Shown: in pieces, positions 13,418-40,100 of the stretch | How the letters are laid out: every line of letters starts with the position of its first letter | How positions within the stretch are numbered: the stretch's first letter is position 1 | Source: a phage | Length of the DNA: 44,477 nucleotides | Direction: 5' to 3' (one strand) | Assembly (NCBI GenBank): GCA_029889005.1 | Contig: GCA_029889005.1_4349.1 | Program-made: the position numbers and the translations under genes | Notes under the pieces: generated by a model | Told to the model about the DNA's origin: nothing | What the model saw: the letters and a program-made list of their open reading frames with translations, nothing else | Databases searched by the model: none

Positions 13418-13930
13418 TTAACCCCGGTACACATTAAATGAGAAGCCGTTGTTAAGACCACCACACAGTAACGGGCGTAAGGCGTCGTCAGCGGCGGTAA
13501 TCGCGGTTGTGGCCCCGCTGTTGCCGTTGTTGAAGTAGGTAACTGTTACCGCACCCTCTACACGCTCGGTCTGCACGGAACGTCCATCGGAGTTAGCCCG
13601 AACATCAGTGCCCGCTCCATACGTAATCGCAGCGATTACCTGCGCCCGGATTAACTGCGGTGGGATAACATTATCCGCTACGGTGAAGCCGTTTAGTGTT
13701 GTTCCTGTACGTGGGTACGCCAGAGACTGTTCAGCGGATACGCGACGCCCGCACATCTGAGGTTCCGCAAGCCCAACATAAGTAGCGCCGTTGCGTAGAG
13801 CTACTTCAGCCGCAGTATCATCCGCAGGCAACTCCAGACCATAATTAGCCGCTAACGCGCGGGCGTCAGCCAGTGAGATGTACGAATCGGCCCCTTCTAT
13901 AATTTGACCTGTTTCTACGGTTAAGGACAC
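13418..13930 (-). CDS. Head-tail connector/adaptor protein, putative
   Basis: 170 aa, first ORF after capsid-proximal genes; resembles gp6-like adaptors by memory only. Confidence 0.45.
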   Translation of the reverse strand: MSLTVETGQIIEGADSYISLADARALAANYGLELPADDTAAEVALRNGATYVGLAEPQMCGRRVSAEQSLAYPRTGTTLNGFTVADNVIPPQLIRAQVIAAITYGAGTDVRANSDGRSVQTERVEGAVTVTYFNNGNSGATTAITAADDALRPLLCGGLNNGFSFNVYRG

Positions 13931-13933
13931 TTT

Positions 13934-14626
13934 TCACCCCTTCTTACAGTTATCAAAGTGCCACCTCTTTAGAAGAGATAGCGCCCCTTCGGTTCCGCAA
14001 TGTGGGCATACCCCGCGCGGGCGTTTCATTCCAGTAAGTTTATCTGAAATTTTCTTGACAGTCTCGCCCTTTAACGTATGGCCCTTCTTAAAACTTCCGG
14101 AGTTAGGTTTTCTATTAACCTTGCCAACGATTCTATTTGGGTCCGCGAACTGGCATTTCTTGCAGCAATATTTACGCGCTCGTGATTTAAAACGGTAGGG
14201 GATCGGCTGGTCGCATGTTACACATCGTTGTGGGTTTGCCATGTAATGCTCTATTCTGGCTTTTCTACTTGCAGTTTCCCCGGTAGCAATTCCTTTATTC
14301 CACGCCTTTTGCCCTAGATGTGCTTGTCTGAGATTTTCTATACGTTTATCAGAAAATTTAACACCAGTATTCAACCTGGACATCTCTATAGCCCAAGCCT
14401 CTTTCGCCAACTTAAAGGAATGTGAGTTAACTTTTGACCTTTGATTGTTTTTAGGGTTAATACACATAACCCTCCAGGCGAAAGCTAGTTCTTTAGTCCC
14501 GTGTATCTTATAGAGAAGCCAATGCGCAATAAAATGCTGTCTAGCGCTCAAAGATACAATATTGTCAAAAGTATCTCCACCACCCATGCATTTCGGGTCT
14601 ATGTGATGTTTTTTTGGTATACCCAC
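13934..14626 (-). CDS. Free-standing HNH homing endonuclease
   Basis: N-terminal HHIDPKCMGGGDTFDNIVSLSARQHFIAHW (HNH-like), several CxxC pairs and repeated K/G-rich DNA-binding-like motifs; GTG start; locally AT-rich versus flanks. Confidence 0.8.
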   Translation of the reverse strand: MGIPKKHHIDPKCMGGGDTFDNIVSLSARQHFIAHWLLYKIHGTKELAFAWRVMCINPKNNQRSKVNSHSFKLAKEAWAIEMSRLNTGVKFSDKRIENLRQAHLGQKAWNKGIATGETASRKARIEHYMANPQRCVTCDQPIPYRFKSRARKYCCKKCQFADPNRIVGKVNRKPNSGSFKKGHTLKGETVKKISDKLTGMKRPRGVCPHCGTEGALSLLKRWHFDNCKKG

Positions 14627-14739
14627 TAAACGGATTGATTTTTGCGTTCGATATTAACTGTTCATAGATTTTGGCGTAGTTCATGATTCACCCTTTTCAA
14701 TGGAGGATGGATTCATTATACCAACTACGCCAGATATTA

Positions 14740-14919
14740 CTATTCCTCAGACTTACGGCGACGACGCTTAGTGCCACCGCCGTTGTTGTGCGCTTCTTCG
14801 TTGTCCGGTTGGGTCGCAACCAGTTCATCCGCTTCTACAACACCGCGCACGGGTATCACCTGACCATCAACCATATCAACGTGGGTGTACTTTTCGCGGA
14901 TTACATAATTATCTGCCAT
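14740..14919 (-). CDS. Small acidic protein (59 aa), hypothetical
   Basis: ATG with AGGAAAGG 5 nt upstream; below ORF-track size cutoff; acidic with RRRRK tail. Confidence 0.35.
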   Translation of the reverse strand: MADNYVIREKYTHVDMVDGQVIPVRGVVEADELVATQPDNEEAHNNGGGTKRRRRKSEE

Positions 14920-14955
14920 GACCTTTCCTTATTACGGCCCCGAAGGGCCGCTGTA

Positions 14956-15177
14956 TTAAGACACAGTTGCTACAGTGCTGCTGGAGATAATATTACCATA
15001 CGCATCGTGAACAACCACTTTATACGTACCGGAGTCGGCGGCAGTGGTCGATGCTTTAGCATAGGTAGCTGCGGTAGCCCCGGCGATGGCGTTGTTATTC
15101 TTATACCACTGGTAAGAATATGGCTCCAGACCACCGGCTACCGTTACGGTCAGCGTCATAGTTTCACCTGTGGTCAC
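14956..15177 (-). CDS. Small Ig-like domain protein (possible capsid decoration)
   Basis: YQWYKNN ... SGTYKVVV pattern of bacterial Ig-like domains; internal ATG ~15159 has AGGTGA RBS and may be true start. Confidence 0.5.
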   Translation of the reverse strand: MTTGETMTLTVTVAGGLEPYSYQWYKNNNAIAGATAATYAKASTTAADSGTYKVVVHDAYGNIISSSTVATVS

Positions 15178-15261
15178 TGCGGTAGTAGCCGCCAGCGCGG
15201 AAGAGAAAGACGCCGGTGATACGTCGCTTCAATACGTCTACCATTTAGGAATCCTCTTAGT

Positions 15262-15291
15262 AAATGAAAAGAGGGGCCGAAGTCCCCCTCG
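15262..15291 (-). terminator. Intrinsic terminator after major capsid gene
   Basis: GAGGGG ... CCCCTC hairpin followed on minus strand by TTTTCATTT, ~15 nt after capsid stop. Confidence 0.5.
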
Positions 15292-15305
15292 ATTATAGCT
15301 TAACC

Positions 15306-16355
15306 TTAAGCACCGACACCAGTTACCAGGAAGGCAATCGGTACGTGCTTGCGGTCAACCACACGGTTCCAGTTGGAGGCGTTCGCCAGGTCCTGCCAGG
15401 AAGCAGAGCGCGGGGTAGTCTCGGTGCCGTTGCCAGTGATTACTGCACTGGTGAAGCTGTAACCAAACGGATGTAGCAACCAGGTCTTACGGGTCCACAG
15501 GGTTTCAACGCCGCCGCCGTTGCCGCGGGACGCTTCGCGCTCGTATTCCAGCGGGTTGGACGGAGAACCTTCACCGTAACCGATAGCGCCGTTGCCGAAG
15601 ATGATGGAGATGAACTTACGGGTCGAGCCAGTGCCGACTACGGTCATGCTGTCGTCAACAATCACGCGGTAGCCCTGGTAGGTGGCGAACATGGTGTTGT
15701 TGTCCGCGTCACGGATGAAGTCGATAAGCTGCTGCTTACGTGCCTGCGCATAAACGAAGCTATGCATCGCGATAGCCCCCAGCACTTCACCGCCGTTGCC
15801 CATCAGAGCATCGCCCATAGTCTGGGTAGCGTCGATGAACGCGCCCGCATCGAAGCCCAGAGTAGCAGACACGTCGATTACCATGTCATTCTGCTCGTGG
15901 TATGCGTCGGTAGCGGCTACGTTGTCGTTGTACAGCCCGAGCGCGGTAGCAATCAGACGGCGTTGTGCCTGACGCTGCCAGAAGTTATCCAGACGTGACG
16001 CTACGGATTGCAGCGGGTTCTGGCTGGTCAGTTCAACGGTCAAATCCGCCTGACCGAAACCTTCGTTCAGGTACGCAACGCGCACCATCATCTCGCCGGT
16101 CTGCACGTTACGCGGGGTGGCGATGTCATGGTATACGTCGTTCGAGTAGTTCGGCTCGATAGAGGTATCAATCGCTTTCCAGAAAGGAATATTAGCGACG
16201 TTGGACGGGCCGCGGGCAATCTCGGCGGCGTATGGGGTCGGGGTGAGAATACCAGACTGGAAGAACGCGGTTTTTTCTACCGGGTCCTCGGTCATATAAG
16301 ACGCCAGGACCGGGATGTTGCCAGTTACGATATCGCCGATAGTGGTAATTGCCAT
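15306..16355 (-). CDS. Major capsid protein
   Basis: 349 aa ORF directly downstream of scaffold-like gene and followed by terminator. Confidence 0.8.
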   Translation of the reverse strand: MAITTIGDIVTGNIPVLASYMTEDPVEKTAFFQSGILTPTPYAAEIARGPSNVANIPFWKAIDTSIEPNYSNDVYHDIATPRNVQTGEMMVRVAYLNEGFGQADLTVELTSQNPLQSVASRLDNFWQRQAQRRLIATALGLYNDNVAATDAYHEQNDMVIDVSATLGFDAGAFIDATQTMGDALMGNGGEVLGAIAMHSFVYAQARKQQLIDFIRDADNNTMFATYQGYRVIVDDSMTVVGTGSTRKFISIIFGNGAIGYGEGSPSNPLEYEREASRGNGGGVETLWTRKTWLLHPFGYSFTSAVITGNGTETTPRSASWQDLANASNWNRVVDRKHVPIAFLVTGVGA

Positions 16356-18256: not shown

Positions 18257-18716
18257 ATTCTGGCTTAGTAACCTTCGCCGCTTTGCTTACCGCCTCTACT
18301 CCATCGGCATCAGTAACTTTAACGAAGTATTCGCCGACCGCATTAACCGTCAGAGACAGAGCCTCCTCAGGCGCATTCACCACTTCCTTACCGTCTTTGT
18401 ACCAGGTCAGAGAATACGGCGCTTTGCCTGCCTTAACCTCGACAGTGATGGTTGCGCTGCCATCTGTAAGTTCAGTGTCTTTCGGTTGCACAGAGAAATA
18501 CACGTCACCAGCGTCCGCCAGATACGGAATTTCATAAAGCATACCAGCGGCAGAGAGTGCGATACCTGTCTTGTCTGCGTACGGCATCTCGTCTACAGGT
18601 ATACCTAGTACACTTTCATCCTCAACGTAGGTTACGTTCTCACCGGAGCCAGACACCCGAGCGTACTGGACTACGCGACGTGACGGCACATCAGTTACTT
18701 TGAAAAAACCCATCAT
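18255..18716 (-). CDS. Structural protein with C-terminal Ig-like domain
   Basis: C-terminal APYSLTWYKDGKEV ... GEYFVKVTDADG similar to the Ig-like ORF at 14956..15177. Confidence 0.5.
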   Translation of the reverse strand: MMGFFKVTDVPSRRVVQYARVSGSGENVTYVEDESVLGIPVDEMPYADKTGIALSAAGMLYEIPYLADAGDVYFSVQPKDTELTDGSATITVEVKAGKAPYSLTWYKDGKEVVNAPEEALSLTVNAVGEYFVKVTDADGVEAVSKAAKVTKPE

Positions 18717-19759
18717 TAATCCCCTTTCAGATAATCAGCAACACGTTTATCGAGTTCCGCCATCTGCTTAAGCGTAAGCGGATTCCCGAAACCATCTACA
18801 GATTTTACGCGAAACTCTTCCGGCGATATACCGCTGTTACGGAAAATCTTACCTCGCACCGGGCCGAGCGCCTGGTCCTGAAACCACGCCGGTTGTTGTT
18901 TAAGGAACTCGTAGTAAGTGGTGTCTGCGCTTACCTGAGTGCCACCTTCCGCGCCTTTAGCCGCGCGTTTTGCGCCTTTATCGAGGAAGTCGAACTCGGA
19001 ACTGATTACCGGAGCCGTGCACGACCGGCAGTTCGGATGGGCTGGGGGCATCGGCCCCTTACCAATTTCCCACGTCATCCCGTCTCTGACCCTGCAAATC
19101 GTACTGGTGCGGCTGTCAAGCGTTGACACCCACTCGTACTTCTCGATGATGTCGTCGTTCTGGCGGTACGTCTCGTTACGGGCCTCGTTGGATACGTGGG
19201 ACAGCGCGGTGCGGATTACCGTAGTCGCGTTACGTTCTGAGATGTCGGCTAGTCCACCAGCGCCAACAACATTCTTAACAATCTGCCGTGTGGTTTGACC
19301 TTGCACAAAGCCCATCTTAACTCCAGTTACAAGACGTGCTACTTCCGTTTCGCCCCATCCAGACATCAGCTTGGTGAAATCAACGGGCTTGTCGCTCAAT
19401 GATAATGGTTGAAACTCGGCAGCGGCCCATACCTGCTCAGCGGTAGGCGTAACAAATTCCGCGTCTACGTTGGCGGTCAGTGTCTTTACGTTCCACTCAG
19501 CCTCGTACGCCGCCAGTTCCTTAAGGTCGTCTGTTAGCTTTGTTTGCCAGTCACCCGTAATACCGGTTAGTGCTTCTTCCAGGTCGCGTAACAGTTTATT
19601 CAGTCGCGCAGTGCTGCGACCGTCGTCACCGAATAACAGCACCTGCCGTTTGATTTCGTCCCGCATCTCCTGAATGAACGGTGCTAGGTCTTTCACTTCA
19701 CCAGATGCGGTGCGTTGCAGCCAAATCTGGTGGCTGATTATTGATGTCAGTAAGCTCAT
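18716..19759 (-). CDS. Head morphogenesis protein (SPP1 gp7-like)
   Basis: 347 aa with conserved HPNCRSC-type motif; position after portal. Confidence 0.7.
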   Translation of the reverse strand: MSLLTSIISHQIWLQRTASGEVKDLAPFIQEMRDEIKRQVLLFGDDGRSTARLNKLLRDLEEALTGITGDWQTKLTDDLKELAAYEAEWNVKTLTANVDAEFVTPTAEQVWAAAEFQPLSLSDKPVDFTKLMSGWGETEVARLVTGVKMGFVQGQTTRQIVKNVVGAGGLADISERNATTVIRTALSHVSNEARNETYRQNDDIIEKYEWVSTLDSRTSTICRVRDGMTWEIGKGPMPPAHPNCRSCTAPVISSEFDFLDKGAKRAAKGAEGGTQVSADTTYYEFLKQQPAWFQDQALGPVRGKIFRNSGISPEEFRVKSVDGFGNPLTLKQMAELDKRVADYLKGD

Positions 19760-19901: not shown

Positions 19902-20555
19902 ATGAAACTGCAAACATTAGAGTTCCCTTATGGAGAAATCACTTTTGACCGTGAAAACTTTATTAACGTAAACGAGCTGGTTGACCAGATGAACCGTTGG
20001 CGTTTAGACAACGGCATGGGGGCCAGAGAGCTTCGCCAGGTCATGGCAACGGATGGCTTCAAGATTTTCAAGGAGGAATGCGAAAAACAACTCGGAATCG
20101 AGAATGCCATAAGGGCGACGAAAGGCCGAAACGGTCGCACCTTTGCATGTCTCCATCTGGCAGTATATATTGCTGAGCAATACAGCGCCTATTTCCATTT
20201 CCTCGTTATCGACCGCTTTATCACACAACGGCAGGTAGAACTACGAAACATTGGCGCGGTGAGCTTTGTCGAGCTTAACGCTGCCGTTAGTCGAATGATC
20301 GAGCGCACGGAGGGAAGAATTGGCCACAGTGGACACTTCATACAGGTGGCTAAAGCGGTAAAGGAATCCGTAGATATCCGCGACGTAACGGGTTTCGATA
20401 CATGGGACTCTCAGGATGCGAAGACCAATCAGTTGCGAAGTGACATCCAGAAAGCTCTGGTGACGCTTCTTGACATGGAGGCCGTTAATGCATGGGGTGA
20501 ACTGAAAGAGGCGATACCTCGGGTTGTGCGTAAATGTGCGGCTAATATACGTTAA
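19902..20555 (+). CDS. KilA-N domain DNA-binding protein
   Basis: KGRNGRTFACLHLAVYIAEQYSAYFHFLV matches KilA-N/APSES core pattern; antisense to flanking structural genes. Confidence 0.6.
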   Translation: MKLQTLEFPYGEITFDRENFINVNELVDQMNRWRLDNGMGARELRQVMATDGFKIFKEECEKQLGIENAIRATKGRNGRTFACLHLAVYIAEQYSAYFHFLVIDRFITQRQVELRNIGAVSFVELNAAVSRMIERTEGRIGHSGHFIQVAKAVKESVDIRDVTGFDTWDSQDAKTNQLRSDIQKALVTLLDMEAVNAWGELKEAIPRVVRKCAANIR

Positions 20556-20557
20556 AA

Positions 20558-20588
20558 CTAAGGCCCCTAGCGGGGCCTTTCTATTTAC
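20558..20588. terminator. Bidirectional intrinsic terminator
   Basis: AAGGCCCC-TAGC-GGGGCCTT hairpin then TCTATTT; between convergent gene ends. Confidence 0.7.
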
Positions 20589-22054
20589 TCCTGTTGTTGC
20601 GCGGACTGCGGAATTTCTCCTGCTACCTGAGCAACCGCACCCAACGGCAGCGGTGCGTCCCCAATAGCGTTCTGAATGTCCTCATCGGTCCAGTCGGTTA
20701 CGCCAGCCTTACGCAACGCGGCGTAGTAAGCAGTAGCTGGTAGCAGGCCTGCGTTAATGTCCGCCATCCACTGAGCGCGGTCCTGAGCTGTCATCGGTTG
20801 CAGGAAGAACTCCATGTTCAGCTTGAATTCAATCTCTGTGTCTTCGCGCAACCCTAGCATCGCCGCTACCCAGCGCAATGCCTCGGTATACGCCATACTT
20901 ACGTTACGTGCGATTGTCGCCATAACAGACGTATCCGCGCCACGTTGCAGGCGGGCGGATTCGGCGGTGATTTGCTGCGTCGGGGTGATAAGCTGCGCAC
21001 CAATCTGAATGGCCTGATTCTCTTTATCCAGCATATTCTGTTTGGCGAGGTTGTTCTCTCCTGCCTGAACAAGAAATGCATTGCCGCCGTAACCGATGTT
21101 ATGGCCCGAACGCGACCCCATGCGCACGCCGTGAGGGTTGGCTTCTTTCCACTGTTCCATGCTCATGTTCTCGCCAGGGGCGATGAACAGAGTAGGCTGG
21201 CCCACAACGAAGCTGGATTCCTCGTTGTCCGCGCTGTTGCGGAAATGCCCGATATTAAGCTCAGCTAACGGCAGCAAAGGTGCATCATCAATGGTCTCAT
21301 CGTTGTTGCTTGCCCCAATGAACGTGAACGGGATTTTGCCCCGTAACTGTTCGCCAAGTTCCGGGAATATTTCGATTACATCATCCTGAGCGCCACCTTC
21401 GGCATCGAAGCGATAGATTCGCTGGCGGTAGCGCCCGTCAATCAAATCGAGAACGCGGTATTGTTCACCGAACTTTGTTTCGAACTCAGCGCCTGGTTCC
21501 GAGTATTCCCACACCTCACGTAACACGACCATCGTCACACGGTTCACTGAGCCGATGCGGGTCAGTCGCCAGTTGATGATGTTCTCAGCAGTGTAGAATG
21601 CAATGACCGGGTTTAGTAACCCCGCGTTCTGTTCGGCTGCCGTTGCCGCGGCTGTCTCCGGGGCGTCCACCAGCAACCCGCCACGACCCACCGAATCAAT
21701 CTCCATTAGCGTATCCTGTGCGTGCTGCCACAGCCCGACACCAGAACCGTCCGCGTTACGTAACAGGTACTCCAGTTCAGGCGGTATAATCTGCTCGGGG
21801 TCTTTGCGCATGACACTGCCGACCATCCCCACCAGCGTGCGTTTGGTGAAATTGTAACAGATAGCGCCGTTCTCGTATTCTTCCTGGCGCTGTGCCGCGT
21901 AGGTCGGGTCCGGCTCATTCTTCCCAACGTTGCGCAGATAGCGGATAAGGTCGCCTTCCAGCGCGTGGCGCACCTTCTGCCATTTATCGAAGTGATGCAG
22001 CCATTCCCGGTGTTTTGTCTTAACACCCTGATTCTGACCGTTCATAGTTAACAT
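20585..22054 (-). CDS. Portal protein
   Basis: 489 aa ORF immediately downstream of large terminase; size and position. Confidence 0.7.
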   Translation of the reverse strand: MLTMNGQNQGVKTKHREWLHHFDKWQKVRHALEGDLIRYLRNVGKNEPDPTYAAQRQEEYENGAICYNFTKRTLVGMVGSVMRKDPEQIIPPELEYLLRNADGSGVGLWQHAQDTLMEIDSVGRGGLLVDAPETAAATAAEQNAGLLNPVIAFYTAENIINWRLTRIGSVNRVTMVVLREVWEYSEPGAEFETKFGEQYRVLDLIDGRYRQRIYRFDAEGGAQDDVIEIFPELGEQLRGKIPFTFIGASNNDETIDDAPLLPLAELNIGHFRNSADNEESSFVVGQPTLFIAPGENMSMEQWKEANPHGVRMGSRSGHNIGYGGNAFLVQAGENNLAKQNMLDKENQAIQIGAQLITPTQQITAESARLQRGADTSVMATIARNVSMAYTEALRWVAAMLGLREDTEIEFKLNMEFFLQPMTAQDRAQWMADINAGLLPATAYYAALRKAGVTDWTDEDIQNAIGDAPLPLGAVAQVAGEIPQSAQQQE

Positions 22055-28727: not shown

Positions 28728-28943
28728 TTACACCGGCGCCGGTGGCTCAGGTAAGGGCGTCCAGTGCGTTACAATTCCCGCATCATTTGCATACAGCTTA
28801 CTGTAACAATATATTTTCCAAACAGGAGTGTTGTCGGCATACACTAAGTAGTAACCCTCATGCACCTGACTGTCTTCCGTGCAAACAAGAATGTCGGCAA
28901 ATTCTTCCGGCATCCGCTCGCTACACTTAATCCACTTGCTCAT
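28728..28943 (-). CDS. DUF551-like protein
   Basis: C-terminal VTHWTPLPEPP signature. Confidence 0.55.
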   Translation of the reverse strand: MSKWIKCSERMPEEFADILVCTEDSQVHEGYYLVYADNTPVWKIYCYSKLYANDAGIVTHWTPLPEPPAPV

Positions 28944-29252
28944 AAATCGCCTCTCTTCTCAAATGCGCCAGCCATTACATTCGCACCAGCTTTCCACGCC
29001 CGCCACGCGAGACGCGTCTTAACGTTCAGGTACTCTTTCTTCGAACCCTTATTAACCGGCAGACCCTCGACGATGGCCCACCGTTCGAATGCTTCTCTCA
29101 TACCAGAACCTCGCATTCATCCCGATACACGAACAATAATGACCCTTTGTACTCAATCATAAAACCATAATGGTTGCTGCTGAACGCCAGAAAAACATCA
29201 CCTACCGAGATACCGAAATCTATAAGCCTGCGGTCAGTTATTCGAATTTTCA

Positions 29253-29489
29253 TTAACGGCAACCTCCCTCAGAGTCGTCGGCACGAGCATCATGATTAGA
29301 TGCCGTTGTGTATACCTTCGCTTCTGCCTTAGTTACCGGGATTGTGTATCTTCCTGTCTTAATCCACCAGCCATCCTCACAGGAATCCAGTACATTGAAA
29401 ACATCACCCACATTTACGTCTATTTTCTCGAGAGTATCACCATCTTCTTCGTAGATAACGGTGTTATCTGTAATTATGATTTGCATCAC
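29253..29489 (-). CDS. Hypothetical early protein
   Basis: 78 aa; part of a chain of short genes joined by ATGA overlaps (two further sub-60-aa ORFs at ~28940..29101 and ~29098..29253). Confidence 0.4.
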   Translation of the reverse strand: MMQIIITDNTVIYEEDGDTLEKIDVNVGDVFNVLDSCEDGWWIKTGRYTIPVTKAEAKVYTTASNHDARADDSEGGCR

Positions 29490-29680
29490 TTCGCCCCTTT
29501 GAATTTAAAATTGTTGCCGATGAGTTCTAAATCACATTTACGGAGTAACCCTTTACCAAACCCAACTACGCTATTAACCTCTACAAAACCGAACCACATT
29601 AACTCCGACTCTATTACCGTAAATAAATCGCCGGTGGATTTATTCCGAACCAACTGACCCTTCTTAAACATAACCATCAC
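29486..29680 (-). CDS. Hypothetical early protein
   Basis: 64 aa ORF, coupled. Confidence 0.4.
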   Translation of the reverse strand: MMVMFKKGQLVRNKSTGDLFTVIESELMWFGFVEVNSVVGFGKGLLRKCDLELIGNNFKFKGAK

Positions 29681-29689
29681 TCCTCTGTC

Positions 29690-29893
29690 TTATTTAAAGT
29701 AGATAGCAAATTTCTTGTAACCCGCTGGCTCGTTACGAAGTCCTTTACCGTTAGCGAAACGTTGTACGTTAACAAAATCATTTTCATCCATCCCGTCGGT
29801 GTCGAACGTAAAGAAGTTGCGCTTGTTCCCGATAATTACGCGCTCAGAGATATCGATGCCGTAAACTTCTTTGATTGCGGTCGCTTTGTTCAT
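29690..29893 (-). CDS. Hypothetical early protein
   Basis: 67 aa, first gene after class A promoter at 29928..29956. Confidence 0.4.
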   Translation of the reverse strand: MNKATAIKEVYGIDISERVIIGNKRNFFTFDTDGMDENDFVNVQRFANGKGLRNEPAGYKKFAIYFK

Positions 29894-29927
29894 TTCTAAA
29901 TTCCTTATGTCTCGTTCCGATAAGTGA

Positions 29928-29956
29928 ATAGTATCCTATTATGTTGGGGTGTGCAA
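29928..29956 (-). promoter_or_regulatory. Sigma70-like promoter, class A (TTGCAC-N17-TACTAT)
   Basis: Motif CTTGCACACCCCAACATAATAGGATACTATTCAC in minus orientation ~35 nt upstream of 29893 start. Confidence 0.5.
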
Positions 29957-30132
29957 GATAATAGTTACGTTGCCGTTGTGATTCTTTTGTTTCTTAAAAG
30001 AGTACGCAACGCAGTGGGTGGGCTAACGCCCACCCCAGCGGAGTGAAGTACTCTCTACCTTGCTTACGGCAACTATAGAAACTTTTAATTATCAGTGACT
30101 TGAGTATTTAGGCGGGATTAACAATAGACTTT

Positions 30133-30265
30133 GGCCCTTCCGAAAGCGCCAGCGGAACTACACTCAAGTGCCTAATGGCACGCGTTGCGTTCCCTGCCGC
30201 TCCGCGGTCGCTTGCGATATCTCACAAGCTCAGTGAAGCTTAGCATATTTTTAAGTAAAAGTCAA
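30133..30265. repeat. Conserved ~130 bp non-coding element, copy 2
   Basis: Homologous to 17759..17890; contains GTGCC-TAAT-GGCAC and AAGCT-CAGTG-AAGCTT hairpins. Confidence 0.7.
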
Positions 30266-30312
30266 TACCAGTAGCATCTTTTGTATTTTAGTAACTTTGC
30301 GTGGTGTTTTGG

Positions 30313-37137: not shown

Positions 37138-40100
37138 ATGAGTTACCTGTTCTTAGACTTTGAAACATTCTCAGAAGCCGATTTGAAGAAAGTCGGTTCT
37201 TACGCTTACGCCGAACACCCGTCAACCGAAGTGCTTATCTGTACATATGCTTTTGACGACGAACCTGTGCGGGTATGGGATTGCACCGACGGCAGCGACA
37301 TGCCGGGGGATTTACACCGCGCACTGCGCCGCCTTGTTAAGCCCAACAGCCGCATCAAGATGGTGTGGCACAACGGTGGACTTTTCGATCGCCTAATCAT
37401 GAAACACTGCTGGGACTTTGATATTCCGGTAAGTAACACCATTGATACTATGATTTGGGCGTTCCGTCACGCGCTGCCGGGTTCTCTTGATGCGCTGTGC
37501 GAAGTGCTGGGCGTGTCTGCAGACAACGCGAAAGATAAACGCGGAAAGGCTCTGATTAAGCGTTTCTCTAAACCGACGCCGAAGAACTACAAAATCCGCC
37601 GCTACACCGCAGAAACTCACCCTGACGAGTGGGCGATGTTCATCAGGTACGCCGTGAGCGACATCACTGCGATGCGTGAAGTCTTCCATAAGCTGCCGCG
37701 TTGGGGTAACTCCGAGTTCGAAGACCGTGTACTGGAACTTGACCAGTTAATCAACGACCGCGGATTTAAGGTTGACGTCGCACTGGCGGAAGCCGCGATT
37801 GAAGCCGTAGAGAAGCACAAGGCACAGTTACAGGAAGAAGCTCAACGTAAATACGGCGGCTCGCTTACCGGTAAAGACTTCCTTCCGATTCTGCGTGAAC
37901 TTGCGCCCGCGCACCGCATACACAATGCACAGAAGTCGACGCTTAACGACCTGTTGGCAGATGATGATTTACCGGACGACGCCCGGATGATTATCGAAAT
38001 GCGCCTCGGGGCCGCGTCAACAGCGTCCACGAAATATAACCCGCTGCTGTTAGGCCGCTCGTCGGACGACCGACGCCGCGGTTGTATCCAGTACGGCGGA
38101 GCCAAGCGTACATTACGATTTGCCGGTAAAGGCTTTCAGCCGCAGAACCTCGCGCGGGGGTACTATCACGATGATGAACTGGATAAAGGTATTTCAGCGT
38201 TACTTAAGGGCCGCGCGCATCGCCGTTTCGATGTCGCTAAGCTAACGGCATCGACGGTGCGTAGCTGCATTATCCCGGAAGCCGGAAAAAAGTTTGTCGT
38301 CGCCGATTACTCTAACGTTGAAGGTCGGGGGCTTGCGTGGCTGGCAGGCGAAGAAACCGCGCTCGATACATTCCGTGCGGGATTGGATATTTACTGCGTA
38401 ACAGCAGGTAAGATGTTCGGCATGGACCCTGATTACATCAAGAAAGAACGTAAAGACTTACGCCAGATTGGTAAAGCCTGTCTTCACCGCCATACCCAAG
38501 TTTTGACCGATGGCGGATTTAAGGATATTATGGCGGTCGCATCAACAGATAAAGTATGGAGTGGTGAAAAATGGGTGAATACAAAAGGCGCGCACCTTAT
38601 GGGGTGGAAACCGGTGATAAATGTGGACGGAGTGCTAATGACCGAAGACCACAAAATATTGACGCATTCCTGGAAGCAGGCAAAGCAACTCGTTTCAAAC
38701 AAATATATGATGGACCGCGCCCTGGAGATAGGTATGGACGCCTGGTTATCCTGCGCGAGTTACCAAAACGACAAGGTCATAGACAACTACTTGCTCAATG
38801 TGATTGCGGAGAGATTCCGGGGCGCGTCGGGTACGACAATGTTAGAAGGGGTAAAACCACTCAATGCAACCGCTGCGCACTTGAAGCAACAAAAAAATAT
38901 CGTAAACAGTATTTCTGCTACGAAGACGCAATGCCGGACGACGGGCACAGAGCGCGATTGCTCAACCGGTTATCTGCGGCAATATCGCGAACAACAAAAC
39001 CTAACGACAAAGGCTATAAAAACTATGGTGCCAGAGGGATTACCGTATGCGAAAAGTGGAAGGCCGATAGAAGGGCGTTTCTTCTCTATGTTCAAACTCT
39101 GGAAGGCTGGGATGACCCAAAACTCGAAATGGACAGAATCGACACAGACGGTAACTACGAACCTGGAAACATTCGGTTTGTCAGCCGTTCTGAAAACTGC
39201 CGTAACAGACGGCAAATACCTGAGCTTCAACGAAAGTATGATGCAGCCGTTGCCCGCATTGCTGAGCTTGAACGGGAAATTAACCTACTGCGAGCCGGTT
39301 TACGACCTGATTGATGTGGAAGACGGAAACCGTTTTCTTATAGCCTCCGACTCTGGCTTTCTTGTGGCGCATAACTGCGAACTTGGACTCGGCTACGCCG
39401 GGGGTGTCGGTGCTTTCGTTCAGTTCGCCAAGAACCTCGGCCTTGACCTTGTAGATATGGCAAAAACAATGGATGGGACTTTCCCTGACCACATCTGGGC
39501 CGCTACCGCGCGCGGGTACGAGTGGGCGCGTATTCAGGAAGCCAAGCGACCACCGCGTCCGGGTGAAAAGGATGACCGACCATCATATATTCTTGATAAG
39601 AAAGTCTGGCGTACATGCGACGCAATTAAGCGTATGTGGCGGGAGTCCCACCCGGAAACAGTAGCTTTCTGGCGTGATATTGAAGACGCAGCTATGGCAG
39701 CAATCCGTAATCCGGGGAAAGAGTTCACCGCTGGCCCTCGCGGGGTTAAGTTTTCTCGCAACGTAGAAACAGACAACAACGGCAACAAAGTCGCTGGTTG
39801 GTGGTTGCGCATGACGTTGCCGTCAGGTCGCGTTATGTCATACCCGGGCGTCGGGTTGAGCGTGTCAAAAGAGACAGACGAAGACGGAAAAGTTTCTACT
39901 AACGTGCGCATCAAGTATCAGGGTGAAAATCAGTTAACCAGGCAGTGGGGCTTCCAGTACACCTACTCCGGTAAACTGGTGGAAAACTGCACTCAGGCAC
40001 TGTGCCGTGACTTGCTGGCTAATGCGCTACTTAACGTTGAAGCAAACGGCTACCCGATTGTACTTCACGTACACGATGAGATTATCTGCGAGACACCAGA

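Follow-up and report, generated by a model that had tools for sequence, protein, structure and literature searches.

The closest described counterparts of the element reported here are the free-standing mobile endonucleases of T-even phages. MobE is a nicking HNH enzyme whose break and recombination point map within the 5' part of nrdB, the gene next to it, and flanking markers co-convert (Wilson & Edgell 2009, PMC2790892). [quoted passage not shown] Nearer at hand are gp13 of Escherichia phage K1G (YP_009168793), annotated as "homing endonuclease; similar to T6 mobE", and its counterpart in phage MirsaeidiM_Esher4 (hereafter Esher4; XLM28264), which are the same gene at the same site as the one studied here and are likewise accompanied by a recoded 5' end of the adjacent head-tail adaptor gene, Ad1. 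Our search of the literature on homing endonucleases in Kagunavirus or K1G found only generic mentions in genome reports.

We analysed a phage contig of 44,477 nucleotides (GenBank assembly GCA_029889005.1, contig GCA_029889005.1_4349.1; this whole stretch is referred to as the window). The window derives from a K1G-like siphovirus of E. coli, a Kagunavirus (Guernseyvirinae). We consider it likely that the locus is a free-standing, MobE-like HNH homing cassette that was recently acquired by a DUEC01-like Kagunavirus and has since been inactivated.

Results

Genomic context of the locus

A sequence-only reading of the window had drawn attention to a 230-aa ORF, taken to be an HNH endonuclease gene with Cys pairs, lying in an AT-rich island between structural genes and being the second HNH gene of the genome. 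Much of this description was borne out. The ORF exists on the minus strand with a GTG start, head genes lie on one side of it and Ad1 on the other, and a second HNH-like ORF is present elsewhere in the genome (Table 1). GC content is 0.39-0.45 across ~13900-14800 versus 0.51-0.59 in the flanks (300-nt windows), and the 802-nt cassette, with a GC content of 0.424 against a genome mean of about 0.504 (SD 0.032), ranks in the lowest 1.3% of equal-sized windows. The flanks had been called GC-rich, which overstates the matter, as their 52-58% GC is ordinary for this genome. The Hoc-like gene of the window is itself frameshifted by a deletion of 53 nt, which is bounded by 6-nt direct repeats and looks biological.

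Table 1 Features of the homing endonuclease locus and its surroundings (window coordinates)
Feature	Position	Strand	Remarks
Head-tail adaptor gene Ad1	13418-13930		PHROG 477; just downstream of the endonuclease locus
Apparent downstream (Ad1-side) co-conversion tract	13713..13870	-	Patchy; follows insert-bearing phages or an unsampled donor, not DUEC01
Recoded first 60 nt of Ad1	13871..13930	-	Candidate target region, now putatively immune
Inserted cassette	13931..14739	-	Fills the interval between the stop codon of the 59-aa ORF and the start codon of Ad1
230-codon ORF	13934..14626	-	GTG start; downstream part of the homing endonuclease gene
Full homing endonuclease coding region	13934..14684	-	751 nt with a +1 frameshift; from alignment to K1G gp13 and the Esher4 gene
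N-terminal fragment ORF	14565..14684	-	MNYAKIYEQLISNAKINPFSGYTKKTSHRPEMHGWWRYF, then stop; native ATG at 14684; out of frame past A7; TGA at 14567-14565
Codon 29, GTC to GAC (Val29Asp)	14597..14599	-	T to A at 14598; in the HHIVP strand of the HNH motif
A7 homopolymer, frameshift lesion	14609..14615	-	GAAAAA to AAAAAAA: G to A at 14615, extra A at 14614
Shine-Dalgarno-like AAGGGTG	14689..14695	-	Ends 4 nt before the native ATG (AATC; spacer of 5 nt counted to the A)
Extended -10-like element TGGTATAAT	14715..14723	-	Inside the inserted cassette; candidate promoter
Apparent upstream co-conversion tract	14740..14872	-	3' three-quarters of the 59-aa ORF; K1G-like, not DUEC01-like
59-aa ORF	14740-14919		PHROG 4451; just upstream of the endonuclease locus
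Hoc-like decoration gene			Between the major head protein gene and the 59-aa ORF
Major head protein gene	15306-16355		PHROG 247; first in transcription order
Second HNH-like ORF	38571..39314		PHROG 374 (E=3e-47); inside the DNA-polymerase intein

Signatures of homing at a fixed site

Searches with the flanks of the locus recovered 475 phage records, mostly from Salmonella and Escherichia Guernseyvirinae. Scoring the insert as present where a record covered at least 80% of the query, it was found in three of these records (two of K1G and that of Esher4) and was absent from the other 472. The DNA of the cassette is 99.2-99.5% identical to K1G and Esher4 over 787 nt. Alignment with insert-free relatives, which had been proposed as a check, gave exact junctions: in those genomes the stop of the 59-aa ORF (GAGGAATAAT) abuts the start of Ad1 (TTATGCC), and the cassette sits exactly at that point. 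Across eight genomes the cassette differs by no more than five substitutions in ~810 nt while their backbones differ by 7-10%, such that cassettes 99-100% identical are carried by phages with ~90% identical backbones. At more distant relationships, homologues of 66%, 53% and 54% identity hold the same site in other phages of 43-45 kb. As judged by sequence comparison, the element behaves like a homing gene, being present or absent at one fixed site, bounded by precise junctions and more conserved than the backbones that carry it.

The sequences on either side of the insert point in the same direction. Left of about 13712 and right of about 14905-15001, the backbone of the window matches that of DUEC01, an insert-free phage, at 97-100% identity, and the stretch in between resembles K1G, Esher4 or a donor that is not among the sampled phages. 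On the upstream side of the cassette, the DUEC01-type backbone resumes somewhere between 14873 and 15001, and the flanking tracts that depart from DUEC01 amount to roughly 130-260 bp per side. These tracts look to have been co-converted with the cassette. Tract length varies among the insert-bearing genomes, for example in L005, which has a 590B-type 59-aa ORF, and because the tract lengths differ in this way several independent invasions are implied. Taken together with the rarity of the insert, the exact junctions and a cassette identity exceeding that of the backbone, these tracts uphold the proposal that the homing gene was recently acquired.

At the very start of Ad1, insert-bearing phages and DUEC01 disagree at 29 of the first 60 nt, as compared with 1 of the next 30 nt, and the differences include switches of Ser codon family and a GTG start. 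Recoding of this kind is the expected signature of an immune target, for which reason we place the putative target site of the endonuclease in these first 60 nt. Phage ST20 has an immune-type 5' end of Ad1, with the endonuclease gene replaced by a different, Cys-rich ORF of 49 aa.

Upstream of the gene, within the cassette, is an extended -10-like element (Table 1). Related elements (TGnTACCAT, TACTAT and TGGTACAAT), all with CCATCTTC after them, have been kept in cassettes whose proteins share only 53-66% identity, the three diverged homologues mentioned above carrying a related TGnTAnnAT...CCATCTTC leader. A sigma-70 scan of 13700-15400 returned no -35/-10 promoter pair, and it is from conservation across diverged cassettes that we infer promoter function for the TGnTATAAT-like element.

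Relationship to Mob-like HNH endonucleases

The 230-aa product matches the homing endonuclease family PHROG 655 (E=2.5e-42). Pfam HNH was sub-threshold for the window protein (E=0.24; 12 bits versus a cut-off of 21.4) and reached E=0.0019 for the K1G protein; zinc ribbons, too, were found by Pfam at sub-threshold values only (E=0.06-0.8), and an NCBIfam search of the window protein gave no meaningful match. A wider search collected 425 homologues. NUMOD3 (PF07460) is a precomputed assignment on many of them, including P0002 (85% identity), and is unreported for the window protein at E<=1, in which NUMOD3-like strings (KFSDKRIENLRQAHLG and ETVKKISDKLTG) can be seen by eye. A profile built from 43 homologues matched the HNH motif of EcoKMcrA at E=2e-4, that of a group II intron maturase at E=3e-4, and that of Cas8-HNH as well.

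Residues E24, H26, P30, N41, H50 and H54 of the HNH motif are invariant among homologues; H26, H27, N41, H50 and H54 are invariant or near-invariant across 88 homologues, and the window ORF encodes all five. The Cys pairs of the sequence-only reading are present as well, forming a CxxC...CxxC ribbon and a C-terminal CPHCG...RWHFDNC (CCHC) motif. The latter is intact in the window ORF, and its residues C226, C229, H242 and C246 are invariant in homologues. An AlphaFold model of the intact protein (pLDDT 86.6 overall, ~97 for residues 1-70) predicts a helix at 3-16, strands at 23-27 and 42-46 and a helix at 47-61, followed by helical repeats and two small zinc modules. Fold searches gave only weak local HNH matches: a catalytic core of ~50 residues is held in common with the solved HNH nucleases EcoKMcrA (6ghc), the endonuclease domain of a group II intron maturase (6me0), Cas8-HNH (8w1p) and GVE2 HNH (5h0o), and outside this core there was no significant structural match.

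In tblastn searches against phages, T-even Mob-like endonucleases aligned at 28-33% identity over 99% of the query, among them genes annotated as mobE, mobD and Mob-like. The matches included the T4 locus at 137.6-138.3 kb (E=2e-23), a "Mob-like HNH homing endonuclease" of RB16 and "mobile endonuclease E" of KM3. On the evidence of its His-(His)...Asn...His motif and of the model, the gene family is a member of the HNH (beta-beta-alpha-metal) superfamily, and full-length collinear similarity together with the C-terminal zinc finger identifies the gene, at the level of sequence, as a Mob-like free-standing HNH homing endonuclease. The intact 249-codon protein is predicted to consist of an N-terminal helix and beta-beta-alpha-metal HNH domain, NUMOD3-like repeats, a C4 zinc ribbon and a C-terminal CCHC zinc finger; the 230-codon ORF holds the HH..N..H residues and all of the modules that follow.

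Lesions in the window copy

The 230-aa ORF had been taken for a complete gene, and in this respect the earlier description has to be revised. In K1G and Esher4 the gene is 750 nt long, comprises 249 codons and starts at the ATG matching window position 14684. In the window this ATG opens MNYAKIYEQLISNAKINPFSGYT, the canonical N-terminus of the family, in a different frame from the 230-codon ORF. The alignment locates the break in an A-run, where ACC-GAAAAA-CAT of K1G and Esher4 reads ACC-AAAAAAA-CAT in the window. No Shine-Dalgarno sequence could be read ahead of the internal GTG (14626) or an internal ATG (14587). On this alignment, the 230-aa ORF is an ORF-calling artefact, namely the 5'-truncated reading of a frameshifted 249-codon gene.

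Restoring the frame in silico yields Lys rather than Glu at residue 24 (E24K), a Glu that is kept in 88 of 88 homologues. The second substitution, V29D, is unique to the window genome and affects a position that is V, I or L in 80 of the 88 homologues and Asp in none. As the two substitutions are separate from the extra A, both would be encoded even with the frame restored. All three private changes of the window copy sit within 18 nt at the catalytic motif; in the remaining ~730 nt there is no change private to this copy, and three polymorphisms are common to other copies. This clustering is not accounted for by simple neutral decay.

Assignment to the HNH endonucleases holds for the family, by way of PHROG 655 and the McrA and maturase profile matches; the window copy does not have a catalytic domain in one intact frame running from the native start with the invariant residues (A7 shift, E24K, V29D). 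The window copy is probably dead. Given the frameshift, E24K and V29D, it is unlikely to have endonuclease activity, and residual activity may arise via internal initiation or frame slippage, H26, H27, N41, H50 and H54 still being held by the 230-codon ORF. The A7 allele recurs in just one other sequence, L007 (a Logan assembly of DRR388490), which matches the window at 100% identity over 5362 nt. L007 probably represents the same phage or dataset, and the extra A is therefore without independent confirmation.

Recurrent disruption of the gene

The exact 230-aa product had no match in the protein collection, because gene callers took the internal ATG and produced a 217-aa call instead. This call (MGGGD...), from the same cluster, occurs on 17 contigs, and intact 249-aa forms occur on ~100 contigs. 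Alignment of the loci with the 217-aa call revealed three distinct +1 alleles at 5' A-runs: the A7 + V29D allele of the window and L007; an A5 to A6 allele at codon 15 (ERZ13382839, ERZ13382822, ERZ13382879 and SRR26419668), which occurs on two backbones and in two cassette haplotypes; and a GA5 to GA6 allele (SRR22520414). Other disruptions comprise a split into 65 aa and 177 aa in the same cluster as the window gene, a split into 50 aa and 180 aa in a sister lineage and, in another such lineage, a frameshift within the C-terminal zinc finger. In IMG/VR and the JGI metagenomes, a 41-mer of the gene's 5' end hit one locus each, both wild type and, as single loci, uninformative on allele frequency.

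Four of the disruptions in the 99%-identity cluster lie in the first 20% of the gene, which has two of its three A5 runs near the 5' end. As a cause of this 5' bias, selection for a truncated protein was considered and is unsupported, given where the A5 runs lie and given that the sister disruptions are at codon 50 and at the C-terminus. In a programmed frameshift, the shift site would be conserved and needed for the main product; here most copies are in frame, and the shifts are a minority at differing runs. A prfB-like stimulator, AGUGGGUAU, upstream of the A-run was also rejected, since its spacing of 6-9 nt and weak complementarity are unfit for +1 shifting, and it is further disfavoured by the presence of the same string in wild-type copies. 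The simplest reading of the recurrent disruption, as far as the alleles themselves indicate, is ordinary degeneration of a homing endonuclease gene after invasion, with defunct alleles that may now and then be carried along by recombination or trans-homing.

Discussion

The window cassette resembles MobE of phage T4 in being free-standing between two conserved genes, with ~30% identity to the T4 locus over 99% of its length. The MobE nick in the 5' region of nrdB and the co-converted flanks find a match in the recoded 5' end of Ad1 and the tracts beside the window cassette. There are differences as well. MobE is promoterless and co-transcribed with nrdA, whereas the window cassette carries its own extended -10-like element; its candidate target is the structural adaptor gene Ad1 in place of nrdB; and the lineage of the window gene has an extra internal C4 zinc ribbon. 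K1G gp13 and Esher4 XLM28264 are intact genes of 750 nt (249 aa); the window copy differs from them by the A7 shift, E24K and V29D, and its backbone is DUEC01-like and not K1G-like. I-TevIII of the T4 nrdB intron offers a conceptual analogue, since it too is an inactivated homing endonuclease gene that persists in a phage genome, although it is intron-encoded and truncated, unlike the window copy. The A6 allele on two backbones raises the possibility that defunct Kagunavirus copies are likewise mobilised in trans.

How the lesions of the window copy are to be read depends on whether they are real and on whether a product is still made. A change in the length of an A-run is a classic type of sequencing or assembly error, the sole matching sequence is probably from the same dataset, and the frameshifting deletion in the Hoc-like gene could hint at the quality of the assembly. 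The phage might then hold an intact and active 249-codon gene, which we regard as unlikely: the extra A is accompanied by G to A (E24K) and T to A (V29D) changes that are not homopolymer errors and would be damaging even in frame, and independent +1 alleles occur in contigs from other samples (ENA, Logan). If the lesions are genuine, the GTG-initiated 230-aa protein could itself be a functional homing endonuclease of this phage, given an open ORF in which the His-His, Asn and His of the motif are present together with all DNA-binding modules. We find this very hard to credit. Such a protein would be without helix 1 (residues 3-16) of a confidently modelled N-terminal domain, would begin with GIPKK in place of the conserved GYTEK (Y22 in 83 of 88 and E24 in 88 of 88 homologues) and would still have V29D; its GTG has no Shine-Dalgarno sequence while the native ATG 58 nt upstream has one, and intact relatives all start at that ATG. 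Highly improbable, too, is the idea that the product lacking its N-terminus (217-230 aa) serves as a site-specific DNA-binding protein without nuclease function, shielding the target or regulating Ad1. The four 5' disruptions in the cluster do leave the whole zinc-finger and NUMOD3 region open, but mutational bias explains this pattern where two of three A5 runs are 5', no ribosome-binding site lies ahead of the internal starts, and one sister-lineage allele breaks the C-terminal zinc finger itself. Substitutions are too few for a selection test on the remnant.

Low-level expression of the frameshifted alleles, through a +1 slip of tRNA-Lys or slippage of RNA polymerase, would make the A-run insertions a throttle on a costly nuclease. 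All three 5' alleles are +1 in A-runs, and re-pairing of tRNA-Lys at +1 on AAA would restore the frame exactly; moreover, the occurrence of the A6 allele on two backbones and in two haplotypes is unexpected for a dead element unless it is helped in trans. That help is available in principle, as I-TevIII is mobilised by MobE (PMC2790892), and the spread of defunct copies is thus explicable by trans-homing. Most copies (~100 contigs and the single loci from IMG/VR and JGI) are in frame, which argues that the shift is neither ancestral nor conserved. In addition, the restored frame of the window would retain E24K and V29D, the sequence has no stimulatory stop, rare codon or correctly spaced Shine-Dalgarno sequence that we could see, and sister lineages are disrupted elsewhere, including at the C-terminus, which fits random decay. 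We therefore hold the slippage explanation to be quite improbable. The broader idea that recurrent 5' A-run +1 insertions act as an off-switch or throttle of a reversible, contingency-like kind (through slippage of tRNA-Lys or RNA polymerase), or else leave a nuclease-free DNA-binding remnant, is a long shot as well; if it were true, a costly homing endonuclease could persist and be re-mobilised in Kagunavirus populations.

The reading that we prefer, a homing cassette acquired and then inactivated, would proceed as follows. The cassette would bring its own putative extended -10-like element and Shine-Dalgarno sequence. In a mixed infection, the intact enzyme would nick or cut the insert-free allele at or near the junction of the 59-aa ORF with the 5' end of Ad1, and repair off the insert-bearing genome would copy in the cassette and about 60 to 250 bp on its flanks. 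Genomes with the insert would be shielded by their recoded Ad1 5' end. A DUEC01-like Kagunavirus would have gained the cassette recently by homing, and the window copy would have been inactivated later, both by the +1 shift in the A-run, which splits the native start and helix 1 from the remainder, and by the loss of Glu24 and the Val29Asp change beside the catalytic pair His26-His27. The window copy would then represent a defunct gene at the onset of the degeneration phase of the homing cycle.

Conclusions

At 99% identity, the element is an allele of a gene that has been annotated before and belongs to a familiar type, and no new kind of element is described here. For annotation, the locus should be recorded as a frameshifted (pseudo)gene at 13934-14684 and not as a 230-aa HNH endonuclease, and the same artefact accounts for similar 217-aa calls in assemblies of metagenomes. 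The Kagunavirus locus could be a tractable system, as the genus is now used for synthetic-biology work. As an example from nature of the homing cycle in a small siphovirus it is a clean one, with a precise site, variable co-conversion tracts, a recoded and putatively "immune" adjacent target and several independent inactivating alleles on show.

An HNH-like reading frame nested in the DNA polymerase intein

The DNA polymerase ORF of the window consists of a polymerase 97% identical to that of phage K1G (726 aa), a relative bearing the endonuclease insert, and an additional in-frame intein. In SETP3-like phages the same insert is annotated as an "intein-containing DNA polymerase precursor". When the insert, extended by about 85 nt at either end, was used as a 1051-nt query, at least 80% coverage was found in 163 records. 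Located entirely within the intein, in a reading frame different from that of the polymerase, is an HNH-like ORF; neither frame is interrupted in the window or in Salmonella phages S55 and VT223. Between 38801 and 39100, in the central intein, the third codon position that takes up the substitutions is that of the alternative frame (21/36 and 16/27); in the exteins it is that of the polymerase frame. This pattern indicates that the intein contains an overlapping, out-of-frame endonuclease gene under purifying selection.

Features of the window discussed in this section
Feature	Position	Strand	Evidence
Endonuclease leader	14697-14723	-	Conserved in L011, L014 and L015
Hoc-like remnant (C-terminal Ig-like ORF, 67-73 aa)	14956-15177	-	
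Hoc-like gene deletion	about 15178-15250, deletion point 15213/15214	-	Versus DUEC01, K1G and Esher4
217-aa gene	19902-20555	+ (opposite strand)	PHROG 6095 "amidase", E=1e-120
DNA polymerase ORF, 1025 aa	37138-40215	+	K1G polymerase comparison
Intein, 294 aa (CLHRHTQ...FLVAHN/C)	about 38482-39363	+	In-frame insert relative to K1G polymerase
HNH-like ORF, 247 aa	38571-39314	+	PHROG 374, E=3e-47

Accessory genes of the head region

Relative to the insert-free phage DUEC01 and the insert-bearing K1G and Esher4, the Hoc-like head decoration gene of the window has lost 53 nt bounded by 6-nt direct repeats (GCGTCT). The deletion shifts the frame past codon 12 and leads to a stop after 26 codons, leaving only the C-terminal Ig-like part open. 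It is common to the window and L007, an assembly of DRR388490 that probably represents the same data. The window phage thus has two disrupted accessory genes, the endonuclease gene and the Hoc-like gene. In K1G, Esher4, 590B, ST20 and SRR26419668, the major capsid and Hoc-like genes are separated by an additional ORF of ~99 aa ("virion structural protein"), which is absent from the window (compared at 15178-15305) and from DUEC01; it is a further presence/absence polymorphism of the head module.

The 217-aa gene, whose product also has a weak KilA-N match in Pfam, is flanked by the portal gene (20585-22054) and a head-morphogenesis gene (18716-19759), which are separated by just 37 nt in K1G. 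It is therefore probably a further accessory gene acquired by insertion (moron).

The endonuclease site and its leader

The lowest GC content of the window, down to 0.41 and below that of the endonuclease island, occurs at 28921-30300, a region of small ORFs.

Escherichia phage ST20 (MF153391) has no endonuclease gene at the site of the cassette (locus L021, 929-1077). Its 149-nt spacer encodes a 49-aa Cys-rich ORF (MNIMRRLLCIHKYL...CQECTKCG...) that overlaps the start of the head-tail adaptor gene Ad1, the 5' end of which is of the insert ("immune") type. Loss or replacement of the endonuclease gene in this phage is a possible explanation.

In the window and at three other-phage loci, the endonuclease start codon is preceded by a conserved leader, in which a TGnTAnnAT-like -10 element is followed by CCATC(C/T)TC. 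The endonuclease proteins of these cassettes share just 53-66% identity. Conservation of the leader suggests that the endonuclease gene moves together with a promoter or regulatory element common to the cassettes.
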